Shown here piece by piece: positions 11,955 to 30,654 of a DNA stretch of 32,000 nt. Numbering within the stretch: the first letter of the stretch is position 1; each line of letters starts with the position of its first letter. This stretch comes from an uncultured archaeon (GTDB taxonomy: Archaea > Iainarchaeota > Iainarchaeia > Iainarchaeales > CSSED10-239). The stretch lies in contig CAZCAP010000006.1 of assembly GCA_964496765.1 (NCBI GenBank), forward strand, positions 1 through 32,000. The letters are read 5' to 3'. A program made the translations under genes and the position numbers. Below the pieces are notes generated by a model. The model had not been told where the DNA came from, ran no database searches, and saw nothing but the letters and a program-made list of their open reading frames with translations.

Positions 11955-11997
11955 AGATAAGATATTTAAATAGATTTTATTATATAATTAAGTAACT

Positions 11998-12876: not shown

Positions 12877-14076
12877 ATGTTAGTTGGAATTGTGGGTAAA
12901 CCTAACGTTGGTAAAACAACCTTCTTTAAAGCTTTAACAATGATGGATGCTCAAGCAGCAAACTATCCATTTACAACAATAGACCCAAACAAAGGTGTTG
13001 GATTTGTTAGAAATAATTGTATAGATTCTCTTTTTAATACGCAATGCAATCCAAGAACAGGCTTTTGTAAAAATCATATTAGATACCTATCTGTTGATGT
13101 TATTGATGTTGCTGGACTAGTTCCTGGTGCAAGTGAAGGAAGAGGATTAGGTAATAAATTCTTAACAGACCTAAATCAAGCAGATGCTCTTATTCAGGTA
13201 ATTGATATTTCTGGTGGAACTGATGAAGAAGGAAGAAGTGTAAAGGCTGGATCCTATGATCCTTCTCTTGAAATTAAATTTCTTCTAACTGAGATTGAAC
13301 AATGGTTATATGGCATATTCAAGAAAAACTTCGAAAAGCTTGGAAGAGAGCAAAAAATGAGAAAAACAAAAACAGTAACTACTCTTATGTCATTTATGAA
13401 TGCAACCCTTGGAACCAAGGAAGAAGATCTAGAAGAAATATTAATTAAGCTTAAACTAAAAGATAAAGAAATAATTGATTGGACAGAAGAAGAACTAATG
13501 ATGTTCACAAGAACAATAAGAGAAAGATCAAAACCAATTATTATTGCTGCAAACAAGATTGATGTTCCTGGAGCAAAAGACATTTATGAAAGAGTTAAGA
13601 AAGAGTTTCCTAACACCACAATCATTCCCTGCTCTGCTGAATCTGAATATGCACTAAAGGCAGCAGATAAGGCACATGTCATTGATTATCTTCCAGGAGC
13701 TAAATCATTTAAGCTATTAAAGGAAGATCTTTCAGATAAGCAAAAGAATGCTCTTGAATTTATACAAAAAAATATTCTTGATGTTTATGAAGAAACTGGA
13801 GTTCAGAGTGTAATTGATAAGATTGTGTTTGATGTATTAAAATATATTGCAATATATCCAGGAGGAACAAAGGGATTAGGAGATAAGGAAGGAAATATTC
13901 TTCCTGATTGTTTTCTAATGCCTCCAGGAACCAAGGCAATTGATTTTGCTTACAAGCTTCACACTGACTTTGGAAAAAACTTCATAAAAGCAATAGATGT
14001 TAAAACAAAAATGCTTCTTGGAAAAGATCATCCATTAAAAAACAATGATTGCATAGAAATAGTTGCTGGAAAATAA
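12877..14076 (+). CDS. ychF: Obg-family GTPase/ATPase, YchF-type (archaeal about 400-aa form with a TGS-like C-terminus)
   Basis: Motifs: G1 GKPNVGKTT, YPFTTIDPN, G3 DVAGLV, G4 NKID. Start set at the ATG giving MLVGIVGKPNVGKTT; the upstream extension in the track begins at a non-ATG codon. Confidence 0.85.
   Translation: MLVGIVGKPNVGKTTFFKALTMMDAQAANYPFTTIDPNKGVGFVRNNCIDSLFNTQCNPRTGFCKNHIRYLSVDVIDVAGLVPGASEGRGLGNKFLTDLNQADALIQVIDISGGTDEEGRSVKAGSYDPSLEIKFLLTEIEQWLYGIFKKNFEKLGREQKMRKTKTVTTLMSFMNATLGTKEEDLEEILIKLKLKDKEIIDWTEEELMMFTRTIRERSKPIIIAANKIDVPGAKDIYERVKKEFPNTTIIPCSAESEYALKAADKAHVIDYLPGAKSFKLLKEDLSDKQKNALEFIQKNILDVYEETGVQSVIDKIVFDVLKYIAIYPGGTKGLGDKEGNILPDCFLMPPGTKAIDFAYKLHTDFGKNFIKAIDVKTKMLLGKDHPLKNNDCIEIVAGK
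14057..14076 (+). repeat. Direct repeat copy 1 (AAATAGTTGCTGGAAAATAA)
   Basis: Identical 20-mer to 14710-14729. It encodes the last residues IVAGK plus the stop of the GTPase gene. Confidence 0.9.
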
Positions 14077-14084
14077 AGAGAATT

Positions 14085-14729
14085 ATGAAACAAGTCTATT
14101 TTGTTAAATCACTGGAAGATGATTTTGCTACTAAAACAGTTATTGGTAAGAAAAAAGTTAATTGCCAAACTATTGATAATATTATTAAAATCAACACCAT
14201 TATTCCAAACACACTAAGCTTTGGAAGAATAAAAAGACTTGCATGTACTCTTCTTGACAAAAACTATACAAAGACCTATCGTTCTCAAGGAATTATATTT
14301 CAAACAAAGCAAACCCCTAATTACATTGCTCCTTTTGATATAATATTATTAACAAATGCAAACAATATTGTAGTTCAATATTATAGAATACAGAATAATC
14401 TACATATTTATTATAATCATAACCTGATAAAAGGTGCTGAAAAATTTATATTTAAAGACTTTACAAAAATGATTAAAAAACATAAAACACCAACAGATAC
14501 ATGGAAACAAATAAACAAATTCAGAAAAAAAAATGGATTTAAGGAACTTTCAAAATCCAAATTTAAACTTGTAGAATATAATGAAGCAATATTTCAAATG
14601 AAGGTTAAGATTAAGCCTATTGCTATTTTTGGATATAAACAAATTGCAAAAGATGTGGCTATAAAGCATCATCTCCCACATTATAAGTCCGCAAAGCTGT
14701 TTTATGAAAAAATAGTTGCTGGAAAATAA
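14085..14729 (+). CDS. Hypothetical protein (gene bracketed by 20-bp direct repeats)
   Basis: 214 aa from the ATG at 14085 (MKQVYF...). No motif recognised. Ends ...EKIVAGK, the same terminal pentapeptide as the upstream gene. Confidence 0.55.
   Translation: MKQVYFVKSLEDDFATKTVIGKKKVNCQTIDNIIKINTIIPNTLSFGRIKRLACTLLDKNYTKTYRSQGIIFQTKQTPNYIAPFDIILLTNANNIVVQYYRIQNNLHIYYNHNLIKGAEKFIFKDFTKMIKKHKTPTDTWKQINKFRKKNGFKELSKSKFKLVEYNEAIFQMKVKIKPIAIFGYKQIAKDVAIKHHLPHYKSAKLFYEKIVAGK
14710..14729 (+). repeat. Direct repeat copy 2 (AAATAGTTGCTGGAAAATAA)
   Basis: Identical 20-mer to 14057-14076, again in frame as IVAGK plus stop. Confidence 0.9.
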
Positions 14730-14739
14730 GCAACCATTT

Positions 14740-16941
14740 TTACAATTTTTTTCTTTTTAGAAGTAATGAGTTTGTTACAACACTCACACTGCTTAAGGCC
14801 ATTGCTCCTCCTGCAATTATTGGAGAAAGAAGCCAACCTGTTGATAAATAAAGAACTCCTGCAGCAACTGGTATTCCAATTACGTTATAGAAAAGAGCCC
14901 AGAACATATTTTGTTTGATCTTTCTCATTGTTTGTTTTGATAACCTAATTGCTTTTGGAACATCCTGCAAATCACTTTTCATTAGAACAATGTTTCCTGT
15001 TTCCATTGCAACATCTGTTCCTGAACCCATTGCTATTCCAATGTCTGCCTGGGCAAGTGCTGGAGAATCATTTATTCCATCTCCAACCATTCCAACCTTG
15101 TACTTTCCATTCTCCTGGAGCTTCTTAACATAGCTTGCTTTGTCTTCAGGAAGAACTTCAGAAAACACATTATCAATTCCAACCTGCTTTGCAATAGCAT
15201 TTGCAGTTCTCTTGTTATCCCCAGTAATCATGTATGTAATTATTCCTAATTTCTTAAGCTCGCTAACTGCTTTTGGAGATGATTTTTTAATTACATCTGC
15301 AACTCCAATAATTCCAAGAACTTTTTTTTCATCACTTAGCATCATCACTGTCTTTCCTTTGGTTTCAAGCTCCTGCATTTTTTCTAAAAACATTTTGTGT
15401 GGTATATTCTTCTGTGTCATAAGCTTGGTGTTCCCAAAGTAATAGGTTTTACTATTTAATTTTGCAGTTATTCCATAACCTGATATTGCTTTAAAGTTTG
15501 TTGTATTTTTAAAACTTATTTTTTTCTCTTTTCCATAATTAACAATTGCTTCTGCAAGAGGATGCTCTGAATATTTTTCAATGCTTGCTGCAATTTCTAA
15601 AAATTGATTGTTTGTTATTCCTTTACTTGTAAGAATATCAGTAACAACTGGTTTACCTATGGTTATTGTCCCAGTTTTATCAAATATCATGTACTTTAAT
15701 TTATGCGCAGTTTCTAGGGCATCTCCACCCTTGATTAGTATGCCATTTTCTGCACCCTTACCTGTTCCAACCATTATTGCTGTGGGGGTAGCAAGCCCTA
15801 AAGCGCAGGGGCATGCAATAACAAGAACACCAACTGCAATTAGTATAGAGAACGCAAGGGTTTCACCCATCAATATATACCAAATAAGACCAGACACCAA
15901 AGCAATCCCAATCACAATGGGAACAAAATAGGATGAAACATTATCTGCAAACCTTTGAATTGGGGCTTTCTTTCCTTGTGCATCCTCAACAAGCTTAATT
16001 ATGTGTGCAAGAGTTGTATCTTTTCCAACTTTTGTTGCTTTAATTTTTAAACTTCCATGCTTATTAATGGTTGCACCAATAACAAAGTCTCCTTTCTTTT
16101 TTTCTAGAGGTATACTTTCTCCTGTTATCATGCTTTCATCAATGGATGAAATTCCTTCTATAATTATTCCATCAACTGGTATTTTTTCTCCTGGTTTAAC
16201 TAAAAAGACATCTCCAACCCTTAGATCCTCAACAGAAACAATTATCTCTTTATTGTTTTTAATTACAATAGCAGTCTTTGGAGACAAATTAATTAATTTT
16301 TTAATTGCATCACTTGTTCTGCCTTTTGCAATTGCTTCAAGAAGCTTTCCTAGCAACACAAGAGTAATTAATATTATTGATATTTCAAAATATTGCATAC
16401 TCCCTGGATTAAATAAAACATTGTACACACTTAATAGGTAGGCTGATAGGGTTCCAATGGATACAAGAGTATCCATGTTTGCACTTTTATTTTTAAGTGC
16501 ACCCCAGGCACCTCTATAGAATCCCCAACCAGCAATAAATTGAACTGGAGTGGCTAGTAGAAATAAAATATAATCCATGTATGGAACTTCTATGGAGAAC
16601 CATCCTAGAAACATCATAGCTAGAGTTGGGATTGCAAACATTAGAGAAAACATAAATAATTTTTTAAGCTTATTAAAATCTCTCTTTTTTTCTTCTTTTA
16701 GTTTATTTGTATCCTGATCCTGATTAATTAATTTCGCACCATATCCTCTTCCCTCTATTGTTTTTATAATATCTAATGGAACAATTATTTGTTCATCATA
16801 GGTTATGGTTGCTTTTTCTGTAGTTAAATTTACATTTGATGAAAGAACGCCTTCTTTTTTATTTAGTCCGTTTTCTATTATTGTTGCACAGCTCGCACAA
16901 TGCATTCCTTTAATTGATATATTAATCTCTTTTTTGTTCAT
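14740..16941 (-). CDS. copA: Copper-translocating P1B-type ATPase
   Basis: Motifs: N-terminal [15 protein letters not shown], transmembrane CPC ([11 protein letters not shown]), [20 protein letters not shown]. 733 aa. Confidence 0.95.
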
Positions 16942-16999
16942 AAATTCCCTCTTTCATCATATTAGCATATTATTTTGTTTAATTAAAGATCAATTGATT

Positions 17000-17554
17000 T
17001 TATTGCCCACATCCACATCCTCCTGTTGATGGTGGACTTGTTTCTTTCGCATTTAAGATTGCTGCTTCTGTGATTGCATTTGTTACACCCTCAGAACTAA
17101 CTGAGAAGAAACCTCTTCCCATGTTCATTGAGCATGCAATTAGAAAGGTTCCTTCCTTATTAGGTGTAAACTCAATTATGTTATCTGTTGGAGTAACATA
17201 TTTTCTAACACCGAAATCTCCAATAACTACACTTCTCATACACCCATCAACAGTTTCAGTATCCACTGTGATTTTTACAGGAATACCCTTCTTCAATGTA
17301 TTTGGGGTAAGCACATATTCATAGTTTTCAAACCTCAAAATTGCTGTTTGTGTTTCTTGTTTTGCATTTAATTGACTAGTGTTTGATAAAGTTGTAGAAT
17401 TTGATAGAGTATTGGTTGTGTTTGTTGTACTATTGTTTGTGATTGTTTTTGATGGAGTAGTGAATGCATAGGCAGATATAATTCCAAAAACTACAATTAT
17501 TGCAATAACTACTAAACCCAAAACTAGAGTTCTTTTCTTTTCTTTTTTTTCCAT
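17000..17554 (-). CDS. Membrane-anchored cupredoxin-like metal-binding protein
   Basis: N-terminal TM, then an Asn/Thr/Ser-rich linker (NNSTTNTTNTLSNSTTLSNTS). A roughly 90-aa beta domain carries DGCMRSVV and ACSMNMGRGFF, a Cys/Met pattern recalled from cupredoxin_1-type domains next to copper ATPases. C-terminal GGCGCGQ. Confidence 0.5.
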   Translation of the reverse strand: MEKKEKKRTLVLGLVVIAIIVVFGIISAYAFTTPSKTITNNSTTNTTNTLSNSTTLSNTSQLNAKQETQTAILRFENYEYVLTPNTLKKGIPVKITVDTETVDGCMRSVVIGDFGVRKYVTPTDNIIEFTPNKEGTFLIACSMNMGRGFFSVSSEGVTNAITEAAILNAKETSPPSTGGCGCGQ

Positions 17555-17596
17555 AGTTTATTTCTCCTTTTTAATTAATTATTCTTTTTTTATTTA

Positions 17597-18277
17597 TTAT
17601 GTAAAAAATATTGATTTTGGTAGAAACAAAATAATTGCACTTAAAATAAATGTAACAATTATTGTAACAAACATTACTGTTGAAATGTTTATTGGTGTTT
17701 TTTTATATGCTTCATGATTATCTTTAATTGCTTCTTCGTGGAACATGTATGACATCCCAACTAGGATAGCAACATTAATTATCATATAAATAGGCATGAA
17801 AAATTTTATGTGATCAGTAAACATCATAACTGTTATCATGGGGCCCATTGTTCCACCCATAATTCCAGACATCATTCCCTGAAGTGCACCCATTGTTGTT
17901 TTTGAGTGAAGACCTGACCAAAATCCAATTCCTACTCCTATTATGGTCCCCACCATGGCTCCAATAAAGAAACCATTGGTAATCCCAATAACTGCTCCAA
18001 TCATCATTCCTGCCTGCATTCCAAGTGTCATTCCAATCATCATTCCAGTCATACAATTGATTTTTACTTTGTATGCTAAAAAATGCCAGGTGCTACCAGT
18101 GAGAAATGCAATACTGATATTTAAATACAAGAACCAGAGAGCATATCTAATCATTATTCCTGTATTTTTTAAAAACACAAAATGAATCCCAATTTCAATT
18201 ATTGAGGCAACTATAAATGTTAGTAGGATAATCAATACAGCTCTTTTTTCGATTTCAAAATTATTGTTTTCGCTCAA
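17597..18277 (-). CDS. Met/Gly-rich polytopic membrane protein (candidate Cu(I) handling)
   Basis: 226 aa. By my count, 16 Met fall within about 86 residues of GxxxG/MxxxM-type sequence (MTGMMIGMTLGMQAGMMIG...GMMSGIMGGTMGPMITVMMF). TTG start with GGGTGA 8 nt upstream, 2 nt after the copZ stop. Confidence 0.6.
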   Translation of the reverse strand: MSENNNFEIEKRAVLIILLTFIVASIIEIGIHFVFLKNTGIMIRYALWFLYLNISIAFLTGSTWHFLAYKVKINCMTGMMIGMTLGMQAGMMIGAVIGITNGFFIGAMVGTIIGVGIGFWSGLHSKTTMGALQGMMSGIMGGTMGPMITVMMFTDHIKFFMPIYMIINVAILVGMSYMFHEEAIKDNHEAYKKTPINISTVMFVTIIVTFILSAIILFLPKSIFFT

Positions 18278-18279
18278 AT

Positions 18280-18483
18280 TTATTTCACCCTATAACCTTT
18301 GTCTCTTATAATCTCTTTTATTTTAAGTTCATTAATTTTATTTTCATCAAATGATATTTTCACAATTCCATTAGCTGAAGACACATTAACCTCAGAGACT
18401 CCATTCTTTTCAAGAAGTCCTTCTTTAATTAAATACTCACAGCTTTTACAATGCATTCCTTTCACATCAAACTCTACATCCAT
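18280..18483 (-). CDS. copZ: HMA-domain copper chaperone
   Basis: MDVEFDVKGMHCKSCEYLIKEGL contains the GMxCxxC motif. The ATG at 18483 is preceded by AAGGTGAT with a 4-5 nt spacer. 67 aa. Confidence 0.85.
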   Translation of the reverse strand: MDVEFDVKGMHCKSCEYLIKEGLLEKNGVSEVNVSSANGIVKISFDENKINELKIKEIIRDKGYRVK

Positions 18484-18559
18484 TTTAATCACCTTTTTTT
18501 TATAACTAATCAATTAATTCCTAGTAGGCTTAATCAGAAACCGCTTATATAGGTACTTG

Positions 18560-18573
18560 TGAAACTAGTTTCA
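18560..18573. promoter_or_regulatory. Perfect 14-bp palindrome TGAAACTAGTTTCA upstream of the copper operon
   Basis: Perfect dyad. It lies about 80 nt upstream of the copZ start and next to a TATATAA element (minus strand, 18544-18551), between the regulator gene and copZ. Confidence 0.4.
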
Positions 18574-18630
18574 TGAATAGATTAGAATAGGATGTGTAAA
18601 ATTAGGTGAAATAAAGAAAAAAAATAAATA

Positions 18631-19140
18631 TTAATTTTTTAAAACAATAATATTTGTCATTCCTCTTCTTTTTCTTTCAATCAATTCTTTGAATTCAAGC
18701 TTATCAAGAATTCTGCTGATCTTAACCTTTGTAAAACCAGTTTTTGAAAGTAGATCTGATTGATAAATTGAACCCTTATTTGCAATAATTTTTTCAAGAA
18801 CCAGTTTTTCATCAATTGCAAGCTCAGAAAGTATTTTTGTATAATCCATTTTGGGTGTTTTGTTTGATTTTTTTTCTTTTATTCTTTTGATTTCCACTTT
18901 GGTTATTATCTTTTCCTCCCACCCAAAGAAAATCAGATAAATTCCAATCAGAATAACAATGATCATAATTCCTATACTAATGTTTGTTTGAAAATTAATT
19001 GTATCCCACATGGTACAACTAGAACCATGTGTACAGGAGTCAGTGACAATATCAGTCATTGCGTTATTGAATAAATAAATTATTCCTCCAATTAATAGCG
19101 CAATAATTATTATTAAAATTCCTACAACTCTGTTTTTCAT
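18631..19140 (-). CDS. Membrane-tethered winged-helix (MarR/TrmB-like) transcription regulator
   Basis: Two TM segments flank a loop DSCTHGSSCTMWD. The C-terminal LVLEKIIANKGSIYQSDLLSKTGFTKVKISRILDKLEFKELIERKRRGMTNIIVL is a typical wHTH. Confidence 0.65.
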   Translation of the reverse strand: MKNRVVGILIIIIALLIGGIIYLFNNAMTDIVTDSCTHGSSCTMWDTINFQTNISIGIMIIVILIGIYLIFFGWEEKIITKVEIKRIKEKKSNKTPKMDYTKILSELAIDEKLVLEKIIANKGSIYQSDLLSKTGFTKVKISRILDKLEFKELIERKRRGMTNIIVLKN

Positions 19141-19162
19141 AAATATTCTTTACTCCTAAAAT

Positions 19163-22021
19163 CTATTCAACAAGTATTCCTGGTCTTCCAGGACTTGCAA
19201 CTCTTGCTTTTGGATTATCAAAATCCTCTGCTTTCTTAATTGAAATATCACAATTAAATATATTTTCAAGGAAACCTTCTATATCCTTATAGAAAGCAAA
19301 TTCCTCTTTTTGGGTTGTAATTACATCAGTAACTGGATTCTTCATTAACCTAGTTATTGTTTTTGAAATATCCTCTTTATGCTCCTCATAGCGGGAGATG
19401 AAAAGGGACACTAACTGTCCAACATTCTTTGTTGTTTTTAATTCCTCAATTAATTCTTTATAAAATTTATATTTCCAGTCATCGGAAACAAATAGGGTAA
19501 CTTTACTCACTTTTTCAAGATTAGCCATTTTAATTACTGTTCTAATTTCACCAGCTAGATCATCAATCTTCTTCTCTGCTTCAACTAAACCAAAATCAAT
19601 CTTTATCTCATCAATCTCAGGAAAATGAGAACTAATCACAAGATCATCATAGCCAAGTAAACTATTTAGTTCTTCAGCCATGTGCGGAGTAAACAAACCC
19701 ATTGTTTTTATCCATTTATGTAATATTTTCTTGAATATGTTTTTATTATTTCCTCCTCTTCTCTGATACCAAACTAAATCATTATAAAAATTAAAATAAA
19801 TTTCATCGGTTGCAACCTTAAACTCAATCTTTTCCATTGCCTGGGTAATGGTGTTTAATCTTATATTGAAAATAGATTCCAACCACAAATCAAGTTTGTC
19901 CTCTTTCTTATCCATTAGATCCTTATTTTCTAATATGGACTCAACAAAACCAAATATTTTTTCAAGTCTTGTTTTATAAATTAATAGATCATCCTCTTCA
20001 AAGGATATGTTAGAAAAAGGAGATGCTACATTTGCATAGAATAGTCTGATTGCATCAATTGAATATTTCTTTGCTTCTCTTCCAATTGATCCAACTCCAC
20101 CTTTTGATTTAGATATCTTTCCTGTTTTTGAAACAACCCACCAATTAACAAATATTCCCTGTGGGTAATATTTTTCTGGTAGAAGAGCAACGTGATTCAT
20201 TAGAAAAGTTGGGAAATGAACTGTTTGATGCTCCTGTCCTCCTAGATTAATATCAAGTGGGTACCAATAATCAACATCTTTTCTTATTTTTTCTAGAAGT
20301 TCTATTGAAACTCCTGTATCTTTAGAAATTTTATTTATATCTCCTTTTTCAATGAAAACAAAATCAAAGAATTCTTCTGTTAATTGTTCAACCTTAAGTT
20401 CTCCCCTATTTACATATAATGAAACTAAATAATAGATAGGATACAATGTGCTATCTGATATTGGCTCAATCACATAGCTGTCATCAAATGGTAATTTAGT
20501 TCCGAGCCATCTTCCTTGACGAGCACAAGCCCTATCATCAAACCAATTTAAAATGTTTGAAAGGTTATGCTTAAACTGCTCAGGAAGAATGTTCATTTCT
20601 TTTGTGTGATTAAGTGTTTTCTTTGTTAATTCCTCATCAGAATATTTAATAAACCATTGATCAACAATTCTTTTAATTATAACTTGCTCTCCGCATCTAC
20701 AGAGAACTTCTTCAGATAAGTCATAAAACAAATAGGCTTGATTATTTTTAATTAATTCATCTTTAATTTTATCTTTTACGGCCTCAACTTTTTGATTAGC
20801 AAACTCTTCACAATTGTCTTTCATAATTCCTGTATGAAAACCGATCTTATAAATTTCTTTTTTTGCTTCCTCAAGCTTTTCTTCATCCTTTTGGGATCTA
20901 ATGTTTAATCTTTCACAAATTTCCTTTGCTGGATAGTCCCCATACCCTTTAGATTTAATAATTGAGATTAATTTTATGTTTTTAATATCTGAATAATTAA
21001 GCCCATATTTCTTACACTCAAGTTCAGACGTTTGTAAATCATAGAGCCCCATATAATCAGAGGGTGCATCAGATGGAACGCTTGTAACAATTCCAGTTCC
21101 AATCTTTGGATCACAAAAACTTGATGGAAGAATAATTATATCTCTATTTATTTTTGGGGAGGTTACATATTTACCTACTAGTTCCTTTCCTTTTACTGTT
21201 CCAATGATTTTTGTATCATCTTTTTGATATTTTAGTTTTTCTGCAAACTCCTGTGAACCAATCCAAACTTCATTTCCCACTTGGATTTTAACATAATCAT
21301 TATAATAATCAAGCCATATGTTTGTTTGACCAAAAATGGTTTCTGGTCTTAGAGTAGCAACAACAATAAACTGATTATCCTTTTCAAATTTTAATTTAAG
21401 AAGAGTGTATTCATTTTTTTCTGCAGTTCCACCTTTAGATAGATCCATTTCTGATGGATCAACAGCAACTGGCCCACACTTAACACAGGCAGTTGCAAAA
21501 TATGGTTTTTGAATTAATAGCTTTTGCTCATTAAGTTTTTTAAATTGCCATTCAATAAATTTATTATAATCTGGATAGGTGGTTACAGTAAATCTTCTAT
21601 CATCCACAATGAAACCATAATCTTTATAGTCTTGTATATATTTTTCTGAGAAATAGGAAACAAATCCTTCGGGAGTTGAAATTTTTTTAAGATCATTGTC
21701 ACTAAGGCCTCTATCCCTATAGTATTCAATGGCTTCTTGATCTCCTTCCTTTACCTTTTGTGCTTTAGCAACAGCACCATTTCCTGATGCGTGTCCACCA
21801 GCAGGCATAAGAACATTGTATCCTCTCATTCTTTTGTATCTTGAGATTGCATCAGCATAGGAATATCCTCTCATATGTCCAACATGTTGGAATCCAGAAA
21901 CAGTTAGATAAGCCCAGATAATGAAATACTTAGGTTTATTTATATCTATTTCTGAGCAATTAACTTTAGATTCTTCCCAGGTTTTTTGCCATTTTTTTTC
22001 AAAATCTTTGTAGTTGTACAT
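19163..22021 (-). CDS. leuS: Leucyl-tRNA synthetase (archaeal/eukaryal type)
   Basis: HIGH-type motif HVGHMRGY, KMSKS-type KISKSKG, about 950 aa. Start chosen at MYNYKDFEKKWQKTWEE, which matches the archaeal LeuRS N-terminus pattern (…EEKWQK.W). The upstream ATG at 22072 is less likely. Confidence 0.93.
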   Translation of the reverse strand: MYNYKDFEKKWQKTWEESKVNCSEIDINKPKYFIIWAYLTVSGFQHVGHMRGYSYADAISRYKRMRGYNVLMPAGGHASGNGAVAKAQKVKEGDQEAIEYYRDRGLSDNDLKKISTPEGFVSYFSEKYIQDYKDYGFIVDDRRFTVTTYPDYNKFIEWQFKKLNEQKLLIQKPYFATACVKCGPVAVDPSEMDLSKGGTAEKNEYTLLKLKFEKDNQFIVVATLRPETIFGQTNIWLDYYNDYVKIQVGNEVWIGSQEFAEKLKYQKDDTKIIGTVKGKELVGKYVTSPKINRDIIILPSSFCDPKIGTGIVTSVPSDAPSDYMGLYDLQTSELECKKYGLNYSDIKNIKLISIIKSKGYGDYPAKEICERLNIRSQKDEEKLEEAKKEIYKIGFHTGIMKDNCEEFANQKVEAVKDKIKDELIKNNQAYLFYDLSEEVLCRCGEQVIIKRIVDQWFIKYSDEELTKKTLNHTKEMNILPEQFKHNLSNILNWFDDRACARQGRWLGTKLPFDDSYVIEPISDSTLYPIYYLVSLYVNRGELKVEQLTEEFFDFVFIEKGDINKISKDTGVSIELLEKIRKDVDYWYPLDINLGGQEHQTVHFPTFLMNHVALLPEKYYPQGIFVNWWVVSKTGKISKSKGGVGSIGREAKKYSIDAIRLFYANVASPFSNISFEEDDLLIYKTRLEKIFGFVESILENKDLMDKKEDKLDLWLESIFNIRLNTITQAMEKIEFKVATDEIYFNFYNDLVWYQRRGGNNKNIFKKILHKWIKTMGLFTPHMAEELNSLLGYDDLVISSHFPEIDEIKIDFGLVEAEKKIDDLAGEIRTVIKMANLEKVSKVTLFVSDDWKYKFYKELIEELKTTKNVGQLVSLFISRYEEHKEDISKTITRLMKNPVTDVITTQKEEFAFYKDIEGFLENIFNCDISIKKAEDFDNPKARVASPGRPGILVE

Positions 22022-22256: not shown

Positions 22257-22856
22257 TTATATCTTGACCTTCTTTTTCAAATAAATCCAACCAATTACTA
22301 GAACAATTACAAAGATTAATATAAGTAATATTAGGTTATAAGATTTCACTATTGTTTCAGATACCTGCTCACCAATAAAATATCCAAGACTTGTTAAAAA
22401 TAAACACCAGATACCTGCTCCTAGACCAGTATATAAAATAAATTTCTTTAGATCCATTTTTGCAAACCCAGCAGGAAGAGAAATGTATTGTCTAACCAGA
22501 GGAATTAGTCTACCAATAAATGTGGTTTTCCCTCCATGTTTTATAAAATAATCATCAATCTTCAGAAGAGATTCTTTCTTTATAAAAAACATTTTGGAAT
22601 GAGATAGTAAATATTCTCTTCCAAAGTATCTTGCAATAGTATAATTGATTCCTGCTCCTAGAAGAGAACCAGCTATTGCAATTATTATAATTATCCAAAA
22701 ATTAAATTGCCCTGTTGATGCTAGGTACCCAGCAGGAATTAATATAACCTCCGAAGGAAAAGGAATAAATGAACTTTCCAGGGTCATTAATAGGAAAACA
22801 CCAAAGTAGCCTAAAGTAAACATCAAAGTGTTTAATGATAATAAAATAAAATCCAT
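22257..22856 (-). CDS. DedA-family membrane protein
   Basis: Motifs: FIPFPSEVILIPAGYLA, GRLIPLVRQYISLPAG and a multi-TM layout typical of DedA/SNARE-associated proteins. Confidence 0.85.
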   Translation of the reverse strand: MDFILLSLNTLMFTLGYFGVFLLMTLESSFIPFPSEVILIPAGYLASTGQFNFWIIIIIAIAGSLLGAGINYTIARYFGREYLLSHSKMFFIKKESLLKIDDYFIKHGGKTTFIGRLIPLVRQYISLPAGFAKMDLKKFILYTGLGAGIWCLFLTSLGYFIGEQVSETIVKSYNLILLILIFVIVLVIGWIYLKKKVKI

Positions 22857-22889: not shown

Positions 22890-23567
22890 TTAAATTAACA
22901 TAGATAAGAAAAAGATTAAAAGGCTTACGGGAAGGAGAATTAATAAATAAATGATTGCTTTTTTCCTATTATCCTCTAAAATGGATAAATATATTGAAGA
23001 AATTATAATATATTCAACAATATAGATGATTACACAATAATAGGTAATGGAATATAAAGAAATACCAACTGTTTCACTAATCTCAGGAACAGATGTTTTT
23101 AAGCTCTTAATTAGAGAGATTACAATTCCAAGTATACCAGGAACAATCAAACTACTAGAGAAGAGAATGGTGTACTTCTGCATAAGAAGATTTGAGTTTC
23201 GTTCATCAAGAACCTGCTTGGTTTTAATAAAATTATCAGCAACAGACTTATAGTCAGAAAAGGAAATGGTTCCACTTGTTGTAGATAAATAGATTAAATC
23301 TAGGAATCTATTTAGTATCTCTGAATTATATTTCCTTTTTAAAATATCAAACAACTCTTTAGGTTTGTGGCCTTTATTTATTTTTAATAGAATATCTGTA
23401 AAGTTTCTAGAAATTATTTTATTTCTTGATTTAGAGAGTTTTTCAAGAATTATTTTTAAATCATTACTCTTGGGAATGGAAGAAAGCTTAAGTATTTCAT
23501 CAACCAATGCATTTTCTAATTTTCTTCTCTCAAGAGAAAAATAATATTTTTCAAATAAATTAAACAT
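22890..23567 (-). CDS. T2SS-F/TadC/FlaJ-like platform protein (half-size)
   Basis: 225 aa. A soluble helical N-terminal domain is followed by C-terminal TM segments. It sits directly downstream of a second T2SSF-like gene and the ATPase. The assignment rests on architecture and context. Confidence 0.5.
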   Translation of the reverse strand: MFNLFEKYYFSLERRKLENALVDEILKLSSIPKSNDLKIILEKLSKSRNKIISRNFTDILLKINKGHKPKELFDILKRKYNSEILNRFLDLIYLSTTSGTISFSDYKSVADNFIKTKQVLDERNSNLLMQKYTILFSSSLIVPGILGIVISLIKSLKTSVPEISETVGISLYSITYYCVIIYIVEYIIISSIYLSILEDNRKKAIIYLLILLPVSLLIFFLSMLI

Positions 23568-23585
23568 ATTTATTTATTTCACTTC

Positions 23586-24329
23586 CTATAGAGGATTATT
23601 GGATCTTATTACTAATAGCAGCAACATATCAATTAACGGGAAAAGTACGATTGTAATAAACACAATTGTAATTGGAGAAAAACTAAGTTCGAGAAAATTA
23701 CTTCCCACCAATAAAAACATTAGAAACATGGATGGAATGATTGCTGAAAAAACAATAAACAATAATGTTAATAAATTTAATTTAGTTGAGAATCTCCTAA
23801 CCATTTGGGTTTGATTTTCAAAAATGGTGTCAGATAATGTTTTTAGAGAATACTCCTTATTCCTGACTCCTGAATCCATAATATCTTCAATTTGATAAAA
23901 AACTCTTTCAAGTTCAGGATAACTTGAGGACACTGAAAACAAGGCATCCTGTAAATTAAAACCATGATTTCTAACCAAATACAAAGCTTCTCCAATCAAT
24001 CTCCCAATCTCACTATTATCACACCTTGATTCAAGCGCAATCTTGAGCGGAATATTCTTTGAAAGATCAGTTGCTAAATTATTTAAAAAGAAGGGAAGTT
24101 CCTGTTGTATTTTTTTTCTTCTGGTTTCTAAAACTATTTTTTTATTAAAAAAAGTTATTGAAAAGAAAATTATAAATGAAAGAATAAATATATAAATTAA
24201 ATTATTAAATGATAATTCAAATAAACTATAATCCACAAGCTTGTATATAAGAAACAACGAAAGAAAGAGAACACAATAGAGAATTAAGTTCTTTCTTGAA
24301 AAAATCTCTTCAATAATCTTTGGCATCAT
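23586..24329 (-). CDS. T2SS-F/TadB/FlaJ-like platform protein (half-size)
   Basis: N-terminal TMs, then ELPFFLNNLATDLSKNIPLKIALE...GEALYLVRNHGFNLQDALFSV..., then C-terminal TMs. This is the layout of the GspF/PilC/TadB domain. The start overlaps the ATPase stop (ATGA). Confidence 0.6.
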   Translation of the reverse strand: MMPKIIEEIFSRKNLILYCVLFLSLFLIYKLVDYSLFELSFNNLIYIFILSFIIFFSITFFNKKIVLETRRKKIQQELPFFLNNLATDLSKNIPLKIALESRCDNSEIGRLIGEALYLVRNHGFNLQDALFSVSSSYPELERVFYQIEDIMDSGVRNKEYSLKTLSDTIFENQTQMVRRFSTKLNLLTLLFIVFSAIIPSMFLMFLLVGSNFLELSFSPITIVFITIVLFPLIDMLLLLVIRSNNPL

Positions 24330-26206
24330 TTACGTTTATCTCCCTTAGCACTCATGGTTTGAATGAAAAATGAAAGAACATCCTCTGGGGAGGGGGTGGT
24401 GGTTTTGGAAGCACACTTGTCCAAGAAATATAGCAAGCTTTTATTTTGTTTTTTAAATAGTTTATTTAATTCCAGTTGATTTTTAACTCCAAAAGCAATT
24501 CTAAATTTATCAAACAATTTTTTGGAAGTTCCAACCTTTACAAGCTTATCTTTATTTATATCAAATTCAAATAATCTATTTAATACAGGCTTATTATTTT
24601 CAAAGATAACTTCACAAATCTCAGTTACATTTCTTAGATCTGATACCTTACCTTTATTATATTTATTATATCTTCTTTGAACAATAATTAAATCAATAAC
24701 TCCTAAATCATTCTCAATAACACCATAGGAAACTAATCTTAAAAGTGCTTCCTTTGCACTTTGAGAATGGAAAGTGGTATAGGTTCCCTTTGCTTGCCCA
24801 CAGAGCATAGAATCAATTATCGCTTTTGATTCATCCCTTGATCTCACTTCTCCAATAACAACCCTATCGGGTCTCATCCTAAGTGTATTAATAACTAGAG
24901 AATCAAGAGTAACTCCCAAATCAGGATTAACAAGAGTAAATATCTTGTGCTCATGGGGTATGTTTATTTCTCTAACCTCTTCAACCACAACAAACCTTTC
25001 ATCAGGTGGAATAAAAGAAAGAAGAGCATTAAGAGTTGTGGTCTTCCCAGAACCTGTATTCCCAACAACAAACACATTTGAATCAGTTAAAAAAGCCAGA
25101 GATAAAAATGAAAGCGCATCAATGGACAACGTGTTTCTTTTAATTAAATCAATAATAGTAAATGGCTTTTCTGAGAATTTTCTAATTGTAACACACACAC
25201 TTTCAGTAATTGGTGAAATTATTGCATTCATTCTAGACGCACCAATGGTTGCATCCAAAAGTGGATTCTTCAAAGTTATATACTTATTGGTTTCCCAGGA
25301 TAATTTATTAATTAAATCTTTAATTATTTTAGAAGACGTATATACTAAGTTTGTTTCAAGCCACCCAAAGATTCTATGATACACAAAGACTGGTTTGTTT
25401 TCTCCAATTATTGAGATTTCTTCTAGACTATCATCCACAAGTAGGTTTGATAGAGGCCCATAGTCATAGAGATTACCATAGGCAATCAAAAGAATATAAT
25501 TGAATTGATCAGATTCCAGTTCTATCTTTTCTCTAAGGCAATAATTAACTAGTGTTTCTTCAAGTTCGTTTTTTACAATTCCTGGTAGTTTATCAGGAGT
25601 ATTTATTCTAACCTGTTTTTCATTATCATCTTTAATATCAAACCTATCCCTGTATTCATCTATAACAAAATTAATTATTTCAATCTCATCAATTGAGAGA
25701 ATGGATTCCTCAATAAAATAATATTTTTTATTTGAATCATCTATATATACGTTTTTAGAAAGGTTTTTTTTATTAAACTCAAATATTCTATAGCCTAGAT
25801 ATTTATTAATTATTTCTAACTCATCACTTTCACTAGTGTCATTAACCAGTTCTAAAATATCTGGATTGTTTTTTAAACAATATCTATTAAATGATTGTTG
25901 AGAACATAGATCACACTTATATGCTTTATTCTTTTTAACTACAATTGCATTGTGTGGGCAAACAGCAATACATTCTAAACATCCAGTACATCTTTCTGGA
26001 TCAATAGATACAACCCCCTTTGCAGAGAAGTAGATTGCATTTGTTTTGCAGGCACCTAAACAGGGAGCATCTTCACAATTCTTACAATTAAATACAATTA
26101 GAGCATCTCTTACTTTAAATTCATAGGGGCAATTAAGAAATAGGTTTTTATTTTTTCTCGTAGATAGTACTTTAGCTTTGTCTTCATCTTTAAATTTAAT
26201 ATACAT
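24326..26206 (-). CDS. FlaI/PilB/VirB11-class secretion ATPase with an N-terminal 4Fe-4S (DmsB/HycB-type) ferredoxin module
   Basis: Motifs: Walker A GNTGSGKTT, Asp box VVVEEVREI, Walker B PDRVVIGEVR, His box TTFHS. The N-terminal 110 aa carry CKNCEDAPCLGAC, CTGCLECIAVCP and CDLC...C. Confidence 0.85.
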   Translation of the reverse strand: MYIKFKDEDKAKVLSTRKNKNLFLNCPYEFKVRDALIVFNCKNCEDAPCLGACKTNAIYFSAKGVVSIDPERCTGCLECIAVCPHNAIVVKKNKAYKCDLCSQQSFNRYCLKNNPDILELVNDTSESDELEIINKYLGYRIFEFNKKNLSKNVYIDDSNKKYYFIEESILSIDEIEIINFVIDEYRDRFDIKDDNEKQVRINTPDKLPGIVKNELEETLVNYCLREKIELESDQFNYILLIAYGNLYDYGPLSNLLVDDSLEEISIIGENKPVFVYHRIFGWLETNLVYTSSKIIKDLINKLSWETNKYITLKNPLLDATIGASRMNAIISPITESVCVTIRKFSEKPFTIIDLIKRNTLSIDALSFLSLAFLTDSNVFVVGNTGSGKTTTLNALLSFIPPDERFVVVEEVREINIPHEHKIFTLVNPDLGVTLDSLVINTLRMRPDRVVIGEVRSRDESKAIIDSMLCGQAKGTYTTFHSQSAKEALLRLVSYGVIENDLGVIDLIIVQRRYNKYNKGKVSDLRNVTEICEVIFENNKPVLNRLFEFDINKDKLVKVGTSKKLFDKFRIAFGVKNQLELNKLFKKQNKSLLYFLDKCASKTTTPSPEDVLSFFIQTMSAKGDKRK

Positions 26207-26356
26207 CTAGATAAATCACAGATATATTCATGAATAAAATTATTAATATTTGTATTCCTATAATTAAAAAATAATTAAACTCAAATAAAGATAAAACAAT
26301 CAAGGATAATTAATATCAAACACGTTTGCCATTGCATTATAGCTTGATTTAAATCT

Positions 26357-27094
26357 TTAATACAGTTCAGAAAAATTAGTTAACATGGTTGTGTTAAGTC
26401 TACCCTCAATTCCATTCATCGAATCAGATATACTTATATTAATATCATTAATCTGAGAATTAACATTATCAAATTGAGTAGTTACGTTATTGAATTCATT
26501 CATGATATTATTATCAATATAATTTTGCACATCATACACTCTTGCATCAACTGAGCTTATTCTTTCAGTTAGATTATTATCCAAATCATCTAATCTCTGC
26601 ACAAGTGCAACGTACTGTTCTCTCTGGGATCTTGAAACTTCAACAATTAAATTAAGTCCTGTTGAAACGTGGAATGAAGATGAAATTTGCAATACCCTTG
26701 GGGTTCCATTTCTAATTACTGTACACTTTACTGCTTCTTCATACACTCCTTCATATTCAGGAGTAATGAATGAAACATAATAGTTCCCAGGAACTGTGGT
26801 TGGACCCATTTCCCTATCCACAAAGAAGAAAGATTTATCAGGGTATAGTAAGGATACAATACAATTTGCATCAGTTATTGATATTCCTTTGGCATCCTGT
26901 AGCCTAACAATAATCTGACCCTGTTCATTACTTATGTATTCAGTTCCAGATACCATCATAAGATCTGATGCTACTCCCCTTCCTTTAAAGTAAAATATAA
27001 GAAAGATGCCTATTGCAAGAAGAACAACTATACCTATTACTAGGTATATTCTTTTTCTATTTCTACTTTCATGCATATGCTGTCTAAACATCAT
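26357..27094 (-). CDS. N-anchored surface protein, paralog A (beta-sandwich-like domain plus short Asn-rich helical repeat tail)
   Basis: TM IYLVIGIVVLLAIGIFLIFYF. The domain TEY..IVRLQD..G...C.V.LLYPDKSFF.VD...PGNYY...G.YEE.VKC...SSFH is homologous to 28647-29144. The tail LDNNLTERISSVDARVYDVQNYIDNN... resembles the 55-aa repeats. Confidence 0.7.
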   Translation of the reverse strand: MMFRQHMHESRNRKRIYLVIGIVVLLAIGIFLIFYFKGRGVASDLMMVSGTEYISNEQGQIIVRLQDAKGISITDANCIVSLLYPDKSFFFVDREMGPTTVPGNYYVSFITPEYEGVYEEAVKCTVIRNGTPRVLQISSSFHVSTGLNLIVEVSRSQREQYVALVQRLDDLDNNLTERISSVDARVYDVQNYIDNNIMNEFNNVTTQFDNVNSQINDINISISDSMNGIEGRLNTTMLTNFSELY

Positions 27095-27139
27095 ATTATT
27101 ATTTCAACTCAGAGATTATGACTATATTATATAGTTAAT

Positions 27140-27190
27140 ATATAAAAACAAAAAGTATAAAAAACCAGGGGATTTCAATTTATCCCCCTG
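27140..27190 (-). terminator. Hairpin plus oligo-T terminator after the repeat-protein gene
   Basis: On the minus strand, CAGGGG(G)AU..loop..AUCCCCUG (27166-27190) is the only GC-rich element in the spacer. It is followed immediately by GUUUUUUAUACUUUUUGUUUUUAU and begins 22 nt after the stop at 27213. Confidence 0.55.
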
Positions 27191-27212
27191 ATCTTCCATA
27201 AACCAAATTCAT

Positions 27213-28580
27213 TTATGATATTATTCTTACATCAATCTGGCTCTCTTGATTATCTAAAATATTGTGAGCTGTAGAATTAATGTCTGTTGTTTGTGCCTTA
27301 ATAATACCAATGTCTGTTAATAATGTATCAATTCTTGATGACACACTTCCTGAAAGGTATTCCCAGGTTGTTGTTGTTGTATTATCTATTTCATCAAGTC
27401 TTGCTACCTGTTCATCATGCATTACAACAGCAGCTGCTTTGATACTATATATTTCTTGACATAGAGCACTTGAGTCGGTCTCTGGGTTTGAACAAAACTG
27501 TTCAAGTAAAGTAATATTTCCATCAATGTTTTCAAATCTTTGGTCAATTGCTGCTCTATCTGTATCATTCATAGCATGTGTTGTTAACCATGTGGTATCA
27601 TCCTTAACACTCTGTACCTGAGTTGATAATTGATCAAGCATAGCGTTTAATTGAAGGTTAAGATCTCCAGCAACAAGTCCTATAATCATATCTGATAAAG
27701 AAGCATTAACATCTGCTAAATCAGATTTAATTTCCTGTCCTGTTATAACAACCTGTCCATTAACACTAACTTCTAAACTATCAAGTCTTGCACTTAGGAA
27801 ATTATTTGAATCTAAGAATTTCTGTGCAATTAAAGCATTTGTGTTATTAAATTGGTTTGTTATTTGGCTTGATAAACTTACGTTCAATGAATCTAAAATT
27901 CCTGTTAGGTTTGTATTAACATTTGCTAAATTTGTGTTTATCTCGTCACCAGTATCTTGAACCTTAGCATTCAAACTTACATTCACATTTTCAAGTTGAG
28001 CAGAAAGCTCAGCAAACTTGGTTGTCATTTGTGTTGCAAGGTTTGTGTTTACTGTGTTCAATAGATTTGTTAAAGATGTATCAACATTTGTTAAGTGAGC
28101 ATTTATTGAATCACCTGTTGCTTCCATCTTACCATCTAAACTTAAGTTAATGTCCTGTAAATTATTTCCAAGAGTCTCAAATTCAGAACCCATTTGGTTT
28201 GAAAGGTTTGTATTTACTGTGTTTAGGATACTTGTCATTGATGCATTTACATCACTTAGGTTTGTGGTTATTATTTGTCCAGTTTCAGCAACCTTAGCCA
28301 TGATTGTTAAGTTAACATCATTTAGTTGTGCTGTTGATGCATTAAATTCGCTTAACATCTGACCAGATAAGCTAGTATTAACAGAATTTAATAAACTTGT
28401 TAATGATGTATTAGATGTGCTTATACTTGTTTGTAATTCCTGTCCTGTGGTTACAACAGTTCCAGTAATACTTACATTAACAGCATCTAGTTGAGTTCCA
28501 AGTGTATTAATTCCTTCATTTAATTGGTTTGTTACACCTGCATTAACATCTGTTATTAAATCATTTAAGTTTGTATTCAT
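27213..28580 (-). CDS. Asn/Thr/Ser-rich tandem-repeat fibrous protein (probably the C-terminal part of one gene with 28647-29144)
   Basis: 455-aa ORF with no signal or TM segment. Exact 55-aa repeats and about 18 N-x-S/T sequons by my count. It is in frame with the upstream ORF across a single TAA. Confidence 0.7.
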   Translation of the reverse strand: MNTNLNDLITDVNAGVTNQLNEGINTLGTQLDAVNVSITGTVVTTGQELQTSISTSNTSLTSLLNSVNTSLSGQMLSEFNASTAQLNDVNLTIMAKVAETGQIITTNLSDVNASMTSILNTVNTNLSNQMGSEFETLGNNLQDINLSLDGKMEATGDSINAHLTNVDTSLTNLLNTVNTNLATQMTTKFAELSAQLENVNVSLNAKVQDTGDEINTNLANVNTNLTGILDSLNVSLSSQITNQFNNTNALIAQKFLDSNNFLSARLDSLEVSVNGQVVITGQEIKSDLADVNASLSDMIIGLVAGDLNLQLNAMLDQLSTQVQSVKDDTTWLTTHAMNDTDRAAIDQRFENIDGNITLLEQFCSNPETDSSALCQEIYSIKAAAVVMHDEQVARLDEIDNTTTTTWEYLSGSVSSRIDTLLTDIGIIKAQTTDINSTAHNILDNQESQIDVRIIS

Positions 28581-28646
28581 ATTTGAGATATTAGTTGTTA
28601 ATATTTCGTTTGTGTCTGCAATCTGTGCACTTAAAGAAACATTTAC
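27612..28646 (-). repeat. Six tandem 165-nt (55-codon) coding repeats
   Basis: Units start VNVSLSAQIA, VNVSITGTVV, VNLTIMAKVA, INLSLDGKME, VNVSLNAKVQ and LEVSVNGQVV. The first five starts are exactly 55 residues apart; unit 5 carries a 15-residue insertion, so the sixth start follows 70 residues later. At nucleotide level, AAGGTTTGT(G/A)TTTACTGTGTT recurs at 28038 and 28203, a 165-nt offset. Unit 1 starts immediately after the TAA at 28647-28649 and spans the annotated ATG. Confidence 0.85.
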
Positions 28647-29144
28647 TTATCCAAGGTTTGCATCAAGTGCATCTACCTTTTCAGTAACTATTCTTACCTG
28701 CTCAAGAGCTGGGTTTAAGTGGAATGATTGAGATGTTTTAATTGTTTGTGTTCCCTTAAGACAGGTTACTTCCTGTTCATAGGTTCCAAGCGGAGCACCA
28801 GCAAGTGAATCTGTTCTATACCAGTTTCCTGGGATATTTGATAAAGCTAGTGGCTGATCATCAACAAATGTACTCTTATCCGGTTTTAGGATAGTTACGT
28901 TACATGAGTCAACTGCATAGGGGTCTCCTCTAAAATCAGCAAGTCTTACTATTGTTGAGGCAACGTCATCTCTCCAATATTCAGTGTGGGATACCCAACT
29001 GACTACTGGTTCATTAACTGTTTGCTTACCATCAGTGTATGCAAATGCAAAGAATGCAATTACAACTATCACAATGGTTGAAACAATACCCCATCTAATA
29101 AGCTTTTTTTTCTTATTTGTATATTTTGGATTTAAATCTTCCAT
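28647..29144 (-). CDS. N-anchored surface protein, paralog B N-terminal part (TM plus beta-sandwich-like domain), ending at an in-frame TAA
   Basis: AAGGTGA lies 5 nt upstream of the ATG. TM IVSTIVIVVIAFFAFAY. The domain TEYWRDDVASTIVRLADFRGDPYAVDSCNVTILKPDKSTFVDD...PGNWY...GTYEQEVTCLK...SQSFH is homologous to paralog A. Confidence 0.75.
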   Translation of the reverse strand: MEDLNPKYTNKKKKLIRWGIVSTIVIVVIAFFAFAYTDGKQTVNEPVVSWVSHTEYWRDDVASTIVRLADFRGDPYAVDSCNVTILKPDKSTFVDDQPLALSNIPGNWYRTDSLAGAPLGTYEQEVTCLKGTQTIKTSQSFHLNPALEQVRIVTEKVDALDANLG

Positions 29145-30042: not shown

Positions 30043-30654
30043 TTATTTTCCTTTCTTTTCCTTTAAATACAAATTATAAATTATTCCTACAGAGACTAAA
30101 CAAAATACTTCTACAATTACAAAAGTTAATGAAAAACCAATTATTGATGCAAGAACTGCACCCACTAGCCCAGCAATTCCTATTCCGAAACTAACAAATG
30201 TTGAATAAACAGACCACTGAAAGCCCTCTCTTCTCTTATCAAGATTTCTTGTCCAAATACTTGTCCAAACAGGATATTCAATTCCTGAACCTATTCCAAA
30301 AATAAATTCAGCTAGATATATCCAATAAATATTATTTGCAAAAATATAAATTAATGGAGCAATTGAAATTATCATGGTTCCAATAAGTAACCATTTCATT
30401 TTTTTCTTTTGCTTATCAACAAACCTAGAAAAAGGAAGTTGAATAATACACTTAGTTATAAGAAATATTGCACTTGCAATTCCTGCTGAAAGAATGCTTC
30501 CCCCAACAAGATTATCCTTTAGAAAAATAGCAAAGATTGGGGCAACCAACCCAAACCCAGTACCAACAATCAGATCAATAAAAAGTAAATGCCATAAAGT
30601 TTTATTAAGTATTCTATTAAACTTTAGGTCATTAAGTAATTTCATATAATCCAA
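30043..30654 (-). CDS. Half-size (6-TM) MFS-like membrane protein
   Basis: About 200 aa with six hydrophobic segments and a loop SRFVDKQKKKMKW resembling MFS motif A. The start is either TTG at 30654 or ATG at 30645. Confidence 0.55.
   Translation of the reverse strand: MDYMKLLNDLKFNRILNKTLWHLLFIDLIVGTGFGLVAPIFAIFLKDNLVGGSILSAGIASAIFLITKCIIQLPFSRFVDKQKKKMKWLLIGTMIISIAPLIYIFANNIYWIYLAEFIFGIGSGIEYPVWTSIWTRNLDKRREGFQWSVYSTFVSFGIGIAGLVGAVLASIIGFSLTFVIVEVFCLVSVGIIYNLYLKEKKGK

Follow-up and report, generated by a model that had tools for sequence, protein, structure and literature searches.

A ferredoxin-fused type IV filament ATPase with a split platform, and a neighbouring pair of anchored surface proteins, in an Iainarchaeota genome: probably two units at one locus

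Among the described type IV filament systems, those in which the membrane platform is divided over two genes, each encoding a single T2SSF domain, define the Epd-like/Tad clade (PMC6668835), and the Epd pili of Methanococcus need both of these platform genes (PMC4371748). Halobacteria and other archaea are known to possess duplicated ATPase/TadC modules that have no pilin gene close by and are inferred to draw on pilins in trans (PMC4858521, PMC4292770). Here, we discuss a locus of comparable layout in a stretch of 32,000 nucleotides from an uncultured archaeon of the Iainarchaeota (contig CAZCAP010000006.1 of assembly GCA_964496765.1; the whole stretch is called the window in the following): a minus-strand run of genes (Table 1) encoding a long and a short membrane-anchored protein, a secretion/pilus-type ATPase with an N-terminal ferredoxin-like domain (Fd-ATPase), two small platform proteins and a DedA-family protein. 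A first-pass annotation of the window had listed these genes in the order and at the coordinates at which we find all of them, and had read them as one undescribed system with a fibrous cargo and without recognisable pilin. We consider it probable, although far from assured, that they represent two independent units, which are neighbours in one narrow lineage only: a paralogous pilus motor (Unit 1, 26206-22257) and a conserved surface-protein pair (Unit 2, 29144-26297).

In Methanococcus maripaludis, the Epd pilus with its ATPase EpdL and its platform proteins EpdJ and EpdK, like the bacterial Tad/Flp pilus (TadA/CpaF, TadB, TadC), shares with Unit 1 one gene for an ATPase of the GspE/VirB11 superfamily and two adjacent single-T2SSF genes. 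The order tadA-tadB-tadC, that is ATPase-platform-platform, is like that of the window. Unlike its counterparts in Epd and Tad, the window ATPase carries an additional N-terminal poly-cysteine ferredoxin domain, a DedA gene is attached, and a TadZ/FlaH-type partner, Flp-type pilins and a peptidase are lacking at the window locus; in the score ranking of the ATPase, afGspE and FlaI come before CpaF and TadA. The euryarchaeal modules Haloferax PilB3/PilC3 and Halobacterium pil-1 resemble the window locus in forming an ATPase/platform operon without nearby pilin, but compared with modules of this type the one in the window has the ferredoxin fusion and the conserved DedA gene and is, judged by source names, restricted to DPANN archaea. 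Since split platforms and pilin-less modules have already been described, the layout is less unusual than was first assumed, and the premise that archaeal systems possess one full-length platform protein was incomplete, two single-T2SSF genes being known for Epd and Tad. From the archaellum the locus is set apart by the FlaI equivalog model of NCBIfam, which reaches 187 bits against a cut-off of 550 bits, and none of the archaellum genes (FlaH, FlaF, FlaG, archaellin) is present in the window.

The ATPase matches the Pfam family T2SSE with an E-value of 1.2e-31 (110 bits, cut-off 24.9 bits), and Fer4 and Fer4_11 are found above their Pfam thresholds at the N-terminus, ahead of the T2SSE domain; the ferredoxin fusion proposed in the first-pass annotation is thereby borne out, and the ATGA overlap of this gene with the first platform gene was seen as described. 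For residues 149-583 the nearest solved structures are Archaeoglobus fulgidus GspE (afGspE, PDB 2OAP; 2.9e-53, 184 bits), Sulfolobus FlaI (PDB 4II7/4IHQ; 8.5e-36, 127 bits) and CpaF (6.5e-30, 107 bits), and the TadA-family model of NCBIfam scores 130 bits. Both ATPase domains of afGspE and FlaI align to this part, which contains the complete archaeal GspE/FlaI-like pair of N- and C-terminal domains with the Walker A motif GNTGSGKTT; the protein is therefore a complete GspE/FlaI-type enzyme, to which about 125 N-terminal residues, i.e. the ferredoxin-like domain, have been added. In an alignment with 12 homologs (35-67% identity to the window protein), the catalytic motifs, Walker A among them, are invariant, and invariant or nearly so are also 12 Cys residues at positions 26-110, which comprise a CxxCxxCxxxCP motif (C73-C83), a CxxCx4Cx3C motif (C41-C53) and four further conserved Cys. 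As predicted from these motifs, the 12 Cys would suffice for two or three [4Fe-4S] clusters, and the resulting iron-sulphur (Fe-S) domain most likely would make the activity of the motor dependent on the redox state or on oxygen. Judged by the names of their sources, homologs of the Fd-ATPase are confined to the DPANN lineages Iainarchaeota, Micrarchaeota and 'Diapherotrites'. Nothing specific on a ferredoxin-fused pilus ATPase, or on pili in Iainarchaeota, turned up in the literature searched.

In the first platform protein, two transmembrane (TM) segments precede and two follow a cytoplasmic T2SSF-type domain; in the second one, such a cytoplasmic domain forms the N-terminal part, and approximately three TM segments come after it. 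T2SSF is matched by eight of nine orthologs of each half (best E-values 9e-11 and 7e-15), and the two platform families align to each other with an hhalign probability of 98.8% (E 9e-17); the split platform is therefore real. The two half-size T2SSF-like proteins recognised in the first-pass annotation are thus sub-threshold by their own scores, which are given below, but clear at the level of the family. Attempts to equate each protein with one half of FlaJ/PilC, N- or C-terminal, were rejected, the matches being weak and conflicting. The gene at 22257-22856 had been called as DedA, in agreement with its VTT domain above the Pfam threshold (1.4e-25, 90.6 bits, cut-off 33.9 bits). With a T2SSE ATPase and T2SSF halves, the earlier view of this part of the locus as a divergent filament-type machine stands.

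The Fd-ATPase gene and the two platform genes are kept together in all relatives examined (L084-L092), with ATPase identities ranging from 83 to 35%. DedA follows next after the platform genes in L084-L089, L093 and L097-L100, coming fourth in the Fd-ATPase operon of every relative examined with at least 54% ATPase identity; in the three more distant relatives L090-L092 an unrelated PAC2 gene takes its place. A functional link of DedA, for example in flipping lipid or glycan carriers for pilin glycosylation, is conceivable. A divergent phosphoribosyl pyrophosphate (PRPP) synthase gene is located upstream of the ATPase in L087-L089, which sets the start of the conserved unit at the ATPase. Only L090 has a KaiC-type ATPase next to the triad, encoded on the other strand, and no homology to the pair was seen in the large surface proteins (871, 547 and >3000 amino acids (aa)) that distant relatives encode ahead of the Fd-ATPase. 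The aligned regions upstream of the ATPase were too AT-rich to call a promoter.

Two of the distant relatives place the triad in the vicinity of a pilus cluster or a prepilin peptidase gene. In L092 (37% identity; 1261-7957 and 8001-10994), the Fd-ATPase triad comes immediately after another cluster of an ATPase and two T2SSF genes; the ATPase of this second cluster matches PilB3 domains weakly, and the cluster encodes small pilin-like proteins starting with MQKG|VSP..., MKKG|QFY... and MVKGFF... In L090 (region 3135-4976), a Peptidase_A24/Arc_PepC_II gene is found 4 kb upstream of the Fd-ATPase. A small DUF192 gene stands ahead of the Fd-ATPase region in both L092 and L090, in the latter after the prepilin peptidase; it may be an unrecognised accessory of these systems.

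As comparators without the ferredoxin-like domain (non-Fd relatives), we used 12 relatives from DPANN and other archaea with 29-37% identity among the matches listed, obtained by an ATPase-alignment scan of genome contigs with generic Walker-type patterns. The ATPase gene is followed by two T2SSF genes in 11 of these 12 listed relatives, the contig of the twelfth ending after the first, and in nine of the 12 pilin-like small open reading frames (ORFs), with K/R-G/A followed by a hydrophobic stretch, lie nearby (relaxed class III scan). The platform halves of the Fd-ATPase module are smaller (225-247 aa) than those of the listed non-Fd relatives, whose ORFs have about 265-390 codons. A relaxed class III scan of nine Fd-ATPase loci, i.e. 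the window and L084-L091, revealed a pilin-like gene near none of them.

For the organism itself, the search took in L001, L170 and L172, which between them span ~1-41781 in window coordinates and a further 10 kb ahead of position 1 (~52 kb). Neither the window proteins that were scanned nor the genes called in these three gave a Peptidase_A24 match, in line with the earlier statement that the window holds no prepilin peptidase. The accompanying claim that no ORF has a class III signal is right insofar as there is no convincing pilin, but one protein of the window does fit the FlaFind-like class III pattern used in the scan: a DUF2807 protein ('adhesin head GIN domain', 1.6e-46) encoded at 5559-6377 (+), 17 kb from the locus, with the N-terminus KHKG|LIVSLVIILILIITIMGI. 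It is the only protein of the window to fit the pattern, and probably a signal anchor that does so by chance. That neither pilin nor peptidase is encoded beside the ATPase and platform genes had thus been correctly noted, but instead of a module dispensing with pilins we favour, and infer for this organism, the use of pilins in trans.

In an archaeal type IV filament machine, Unit 1 would then supply the motor core, probably transcribed as one operon and composed of a presumably hexameric GspE/FlaI-type ATPase, a platform made of two single-T2SSF proteins and the DedA-family protein. Most likely it polymerises pilins with class III signal peptides that are encoded elsewhere in the genome, as would be the prepilin peptidase processing them. 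It may represent a paralogous second motor, of the 'ATPase/TadC' module type already inferred for other archaea, with the added Fe-S domain as a separate and probably redox-dependent control.

Turning to Unit 2, the paralogy of the two anchored proteins suggested earlier is confirmed: the short protein, paralog A, shares 31% identity (E 4e-18) with the N-terminal region of the long one. The structural model of the short paralog (predicted local distance difference test score, pLDDT, 80) comprises a TM helix (residues 10-38), a 7-strand immunoglobulin (Ig)-like sandwich (44-144) and a single helix of ~100 residues (146-244). The best fold matches of the sandwich are filamin, Ig and macroglobulin domains (Foldseek; Lin-41 filamin domain with E 6e-5 and a TM-score of 0.65 on the target), and the top 50 fold matches of the short paralog contain neither pilin nor archaellin. 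A K/R-G/A class III cleavage site is absent from the family alignment of 21 sequences, in which the basic residues precede I, V, L or Y and never G or A. In the long member, helix and sandwich are followed by ~480 residues of repeats and a C-terminal domain. At the protein level, a 55-aa unit with an 11-residue sub-period is repeated 5-6 times, and Tandem Repeats Finder reports no repeats at the DNA level of the long gene; the conserved C-terminal domain of ~135 aa ends with 'IIS'. N-x-S/T sequons number 20 in the long protein, compared with 13.5 +/- 3.0 expected from shuffles. The AlphaFold model of an intact long ortholog is of low confidence (pLDDT 62.8); it suggests beta-hairpin-plus-helix units and neither confirms nor refutes a coiled-coil fibre. 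The description of the paralogs as fibrous accordingly keeps the 55-aa repeats of the long protein in its favour, but the model of the repeat structure lends it little. The 7-strand sandwich and the long helix of the short paralog are shared with generic filamin/Ig-like surface proteins with coiled-coil stalks, from which the pair differs by its N-terminal signal anchor, the long/short tandem, the 55-residue repeats and the conserved C-terminal domain.

No sequence family of Pfam or NCBIfam was matched by the pair, and PHROGs was uninformative. The family profile of paralog A retrieved 77 metagenome loci, 48 of them with two family members, the long member, where inspected, usually being directly upstream of the short one; among 1.84 billion representative proteins it has 856 matches at E <= 1e-3 and 414 at E <= 1e-10. 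With 856 representative clusters, the long/short pair constitutes a sizeable uncharacterised family of surface proteins. We propose that Unit 2 encodes, in a widely conserved tandem arrangement, two surface proteins with a type II (N-in) membrane anchor, a membrane-proximal Ig-like domain and helical or repeat regions projecting outward, which would reach the membrane by their own signal anchor, presumably along the general Sec route, and would probably serve in envelope structure or adhesion.

Both genes of the pair are interrupted in the window. The long gene had been annotated as one protein (29144-27213), yet an in-frame TAA at 28647-28649 splits 165 aa from 476 in-frame codons; the codon at this position is CAA (Gln) in a relative of 66% identity, which has an intact ortholog of 642 aa, and GCT in one of 83% identity. 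For paralog A, the coordinates 27094-26357 are those of the called ORF, but its end is a premature TAA (26357-26359), 19 codons short of the orthologs, in which this position reads CAA or TCT and is followed by 19 conserved residues (KFKSSYNAMANVFDIN-P); the 19 tail codons (26300-26356) are still in frame and lead to the ancestral TGA stop at 26297-26299. The stop of the long gene recurs in L001 and L002, that of paralog A in L001, L002 and L003, and since these are independent assemblies, an error of assembly is not the cause of either. Of the 30 ORFs listed for the window, 26 terminate with TAA, these two stops counted, and TAA is therefore an ordinary stop codon in the source genome. Lesions are also found in other pair loci: TAG in paralog A of L093 (329-331, Gln position), TAG just past the Ig-like domain of the long gene of L117 (9244-9246), TAA in the long gene of L118 (7631-7633, position aligned to Gln) and a frameshift in the long gene of L122/L123 (L122 ~2415-2430). 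In the same scan of pair loci, 53 ORFs hold the Ig-like and C-terminal domains in one uninterrupted frame. In the window both pair genes are hit and all four genes of Unit 1 are intact, and Units 1 and 2 are therefore separable.

Other explanations were weighed as well. If the in-frame TAA were read through or recoded, for example as Gln, both paralogs would be full length, for which speak the CAA codon of a close relative at both window sites, the frames staying open and conserved past the stops (476 and 19 codons) and the single in-frame stops in the same genes of L093, L117 and L118, Gln positions among them. However, TAA also terminates platform half 2 (as TAA TAA, at the same position as in the orthologs), the stops of other lineages mix TAG and TAA, with one frameshift in addition, and 53 ORFs run uninterrupted through both domains; moreover, CAA to TAA is the only route to TAA by a transition, and a Gln bias is what is to be expected of ordinary nonsense mutations. 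A global recoding of TAA was rejected on account of the 26 of 30 ORFs ending with it and of the TAG, TAA or frameshift seen in other lineages, and we consider read-through or recoding of any kind very improbable here. The mixed stop types and the normal use of TAA, as read from the sequences, argue for ordinary recurrent inactivation. The recurrence suggests an exposed, dispensable protein pair which is inactivated repeatedly, or possibly read-through. According to the first-pass annotation, the Fd-ATPase and the split platform may build the uncleaved, glycosylated, N-anchored paralogs into a pilin-free surface fibre or secretion system. The co-directional pair and ATPase genes are indeed adjacent with short gaps in the window and in eight close relatives, the short paralog with its hydrophobic N-terminal helix and Ig-like sandwich, although followed by the ~100-residue helix, shows the general build of archaeal pilins, sequons are modestly enriched, and the Fd-ATPase loci are consistently devoid of nearby pilin-like genes. 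The association of the repeat proteins with the ATPase is nevertheless not conserved, an outcome which the first-pass annotation itself had named as a refutation: the ATPase follows the pair in eight loci, each with a paralog A identity of at least 73%, and is missing in 37 of the 45 informative loci, these 37 reaching 2.5 kb or more past the pair. The pair lies near 1 kb and the Fd-ATPase near 68 kb on contig NPID01000316.1, about 66 kb apart, and in L087-L092 the triad is kept without an adjoining pair. Elsewhere the recurrent neighbours of the pair are a methyltransferase gene upstream and a leucyl-tRNA synthetase (LeuRS) or GTPase gene downstream; since methyltransferase and LeuRS flank the region in the window as well, the adjacency looks like local synteny, with the motor operon inserted in one lineage. 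The missing K/R-G/A motif, the lack of pilin or archaellin among the top 50 fold matches, the nonsense codons in the pair beside intact motor genes and a terminator-like element inside the pair, noted earlier as a hairpin with an oligo-T tract and seen by us as a G+C-rich hairpin and T-run at 27188-27167, speak against the fibre as well, and we regard it as highly improbable. We attach just as little probability to a DPANN-specific, redox-gated filament-like machine without dedicated pilins that would have been recruited in this lineage to the adjacent Ig/repeat proteins, for instance for host attachment.

An explanation of another kind accepts the Fd-ATPase, platform and DedA as one membrane machine, driven by the ATPase and tied to the redox state, but assigns to it a task other than pilus assembly, such as the uptake of host DNA or protein or the handling of lipid or glycan carriers with the help of DedA. 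VirB11/GspE-type ATPases power non-pilus systems as well, the DedA linkage is kept across 54-100% ATPase identity, and no ferredoxin fusion was found in the pilus literature searched; the nine Fd-ATPase loci without pilin-like genes would also be in accordance. The T2SSF pair, however, is a component specific to type IV filament machines, the nearest non-Fd relatives among the matches listed have pilin-like genes nearby, the triad lies near a pilus cluster in L092 and near a prepilin peptidase in L090, and DedA gives way to PAC2 in the more distant relatives. We therefore judge a non-pilus machine to be unlikely. It should also be noted that several observations weigh against our own interpretation of the locus as a pilus motor beside an independent surface-protein pair. 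The nine Fd-ATPase loci other than L092 are without nearby pilin-like genes, which fits a non-pilin substrate too, and strict and relaxed motif scans together with the A24 search detected no pilin or prepilin peptidase in ~52 kb around the locus. Both window platform proteins score below the Pfam T2SSF threshold (E 0.038 and 0.0033; 14.4 and 17.8 bits, cut-off 25.2 bits), and Fe-S binding and redox gating are predictions from the Cys motifs. In the eight closest relatives 68-150 nucleotides (nt) separate the pair from the ATPase that follows it in the same direction, and no terminator is predicted between paralog A and the ATPase, so that the two may be co-transcribed in this lineage.

If the Fe-S domain gates the motor, a type IV filament ATPase would be linked directly to the redox state or to oxygen, for which no report was found in the literature searched. 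The Fd-ATPase module occurs in several lineages of DPANN archaea, whose host attachment is poorly understood, and pilus assembly in anaerobic DPANN symbionts might, if the proposal is true, be switched by redox via a second, pilin-less motor. The repeated nonsense interruptions of the pair suggest dispensable genes or fluctuating selection, as expected of exposed proteins. General caution should be exercised before a 'new secretion system' is named on the basis of a lineage-specific adjacency. What remains of interest are the ferredoxin-fused, pilin-less ATPase/split-platform/DedA module recurring in DPANN archaea and the long/short anchored surface cassette with its proneness to nonsense interruption.

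Table 1. Genes and elements of the locus, in the direction of transcription (window coordinates)
Feature	Coordinates	Strand	Remarks
Long paralog, N-terminal fragment, 165 aa	28647..29144	-	basic N-terminus, one TM helix (~residues 13-39), Ig-like beta-sandwich
Long paralog, remainder, 476 in-frame codons	27213..28646	-	called 455-aa ORF, ATG at 28580
Terminator-like hairpin, then GGTTTTTTAT, between long and short paralog genes	27167..27188	-	
Short paralog A including ancestral tail	26297..27094	-	called ORF 26357-27094, 245 aa
Fd-ATPase, secretion/pilus type, 626 aa	24326..26206	-	
Platform half 1, 247 aa	23586..24329	-	start overlaps ATPase stop (ATGA)
Platform half 2, 225 aa	22890..23567	-	
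DedA/VTT-domain membrane protein	22257..22856	-	co-directional, 33 nt downstream of platform half 2

The window is of archaeal origin, with a G+C content of ~29%, and its proteins have their closest named relatives in 'Candidatus (I)ainarchaeum', 'Diapherotrites' and Micrarchaeota, which places the source among the DPANN archaea. Its sequence is present in several other assemblies, L001-L003 among them, and in the ENA contig k141_425481 with coinciding coordinates. Two tRNA genes and a complete archaeal 23S rRNA gene (8137-11121, minus strand) are encoded; since no 16S or 5S rRNA gene occurs anywhere in the window, the 23S gene lies outside any contiguous rRNA operon. A copper-handling cluster at 14740-19140 (minus strand), which is kept downstream of LeuRS in L001-L003, comprises a P-type ATPase with HMA domain, a small HMA protein, a cupredoxin-like anchored protein, a Gly/Met-rich membrane protein and a MarR-like regulator. 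The major facilitator superfamily (MFS) transporter gene at 30043-30654 (minus strand) encodes only ~200 aa, half the usual size, and does so in other assemblies as well; its product covers positions 2-170 of the 347-position MFS_1 model. In L088, a 66-aa ORF (15927-16124) consists nearly entirely of KKAPVKKAVV repeats. Just past window position 1, the 110-kb contig L170 contains genes for an integrase (Phage_integr_3), VRR_NUC, SLFN_AlbA_2, DUF5906 and helix-turn-helix-domain proteins (11021-19645). The tRNA-Met gene at window positions 5-77 adjoins this region, which is probably a mobile element integrated at that gene, and the shorter ENA contig stops exactly there.

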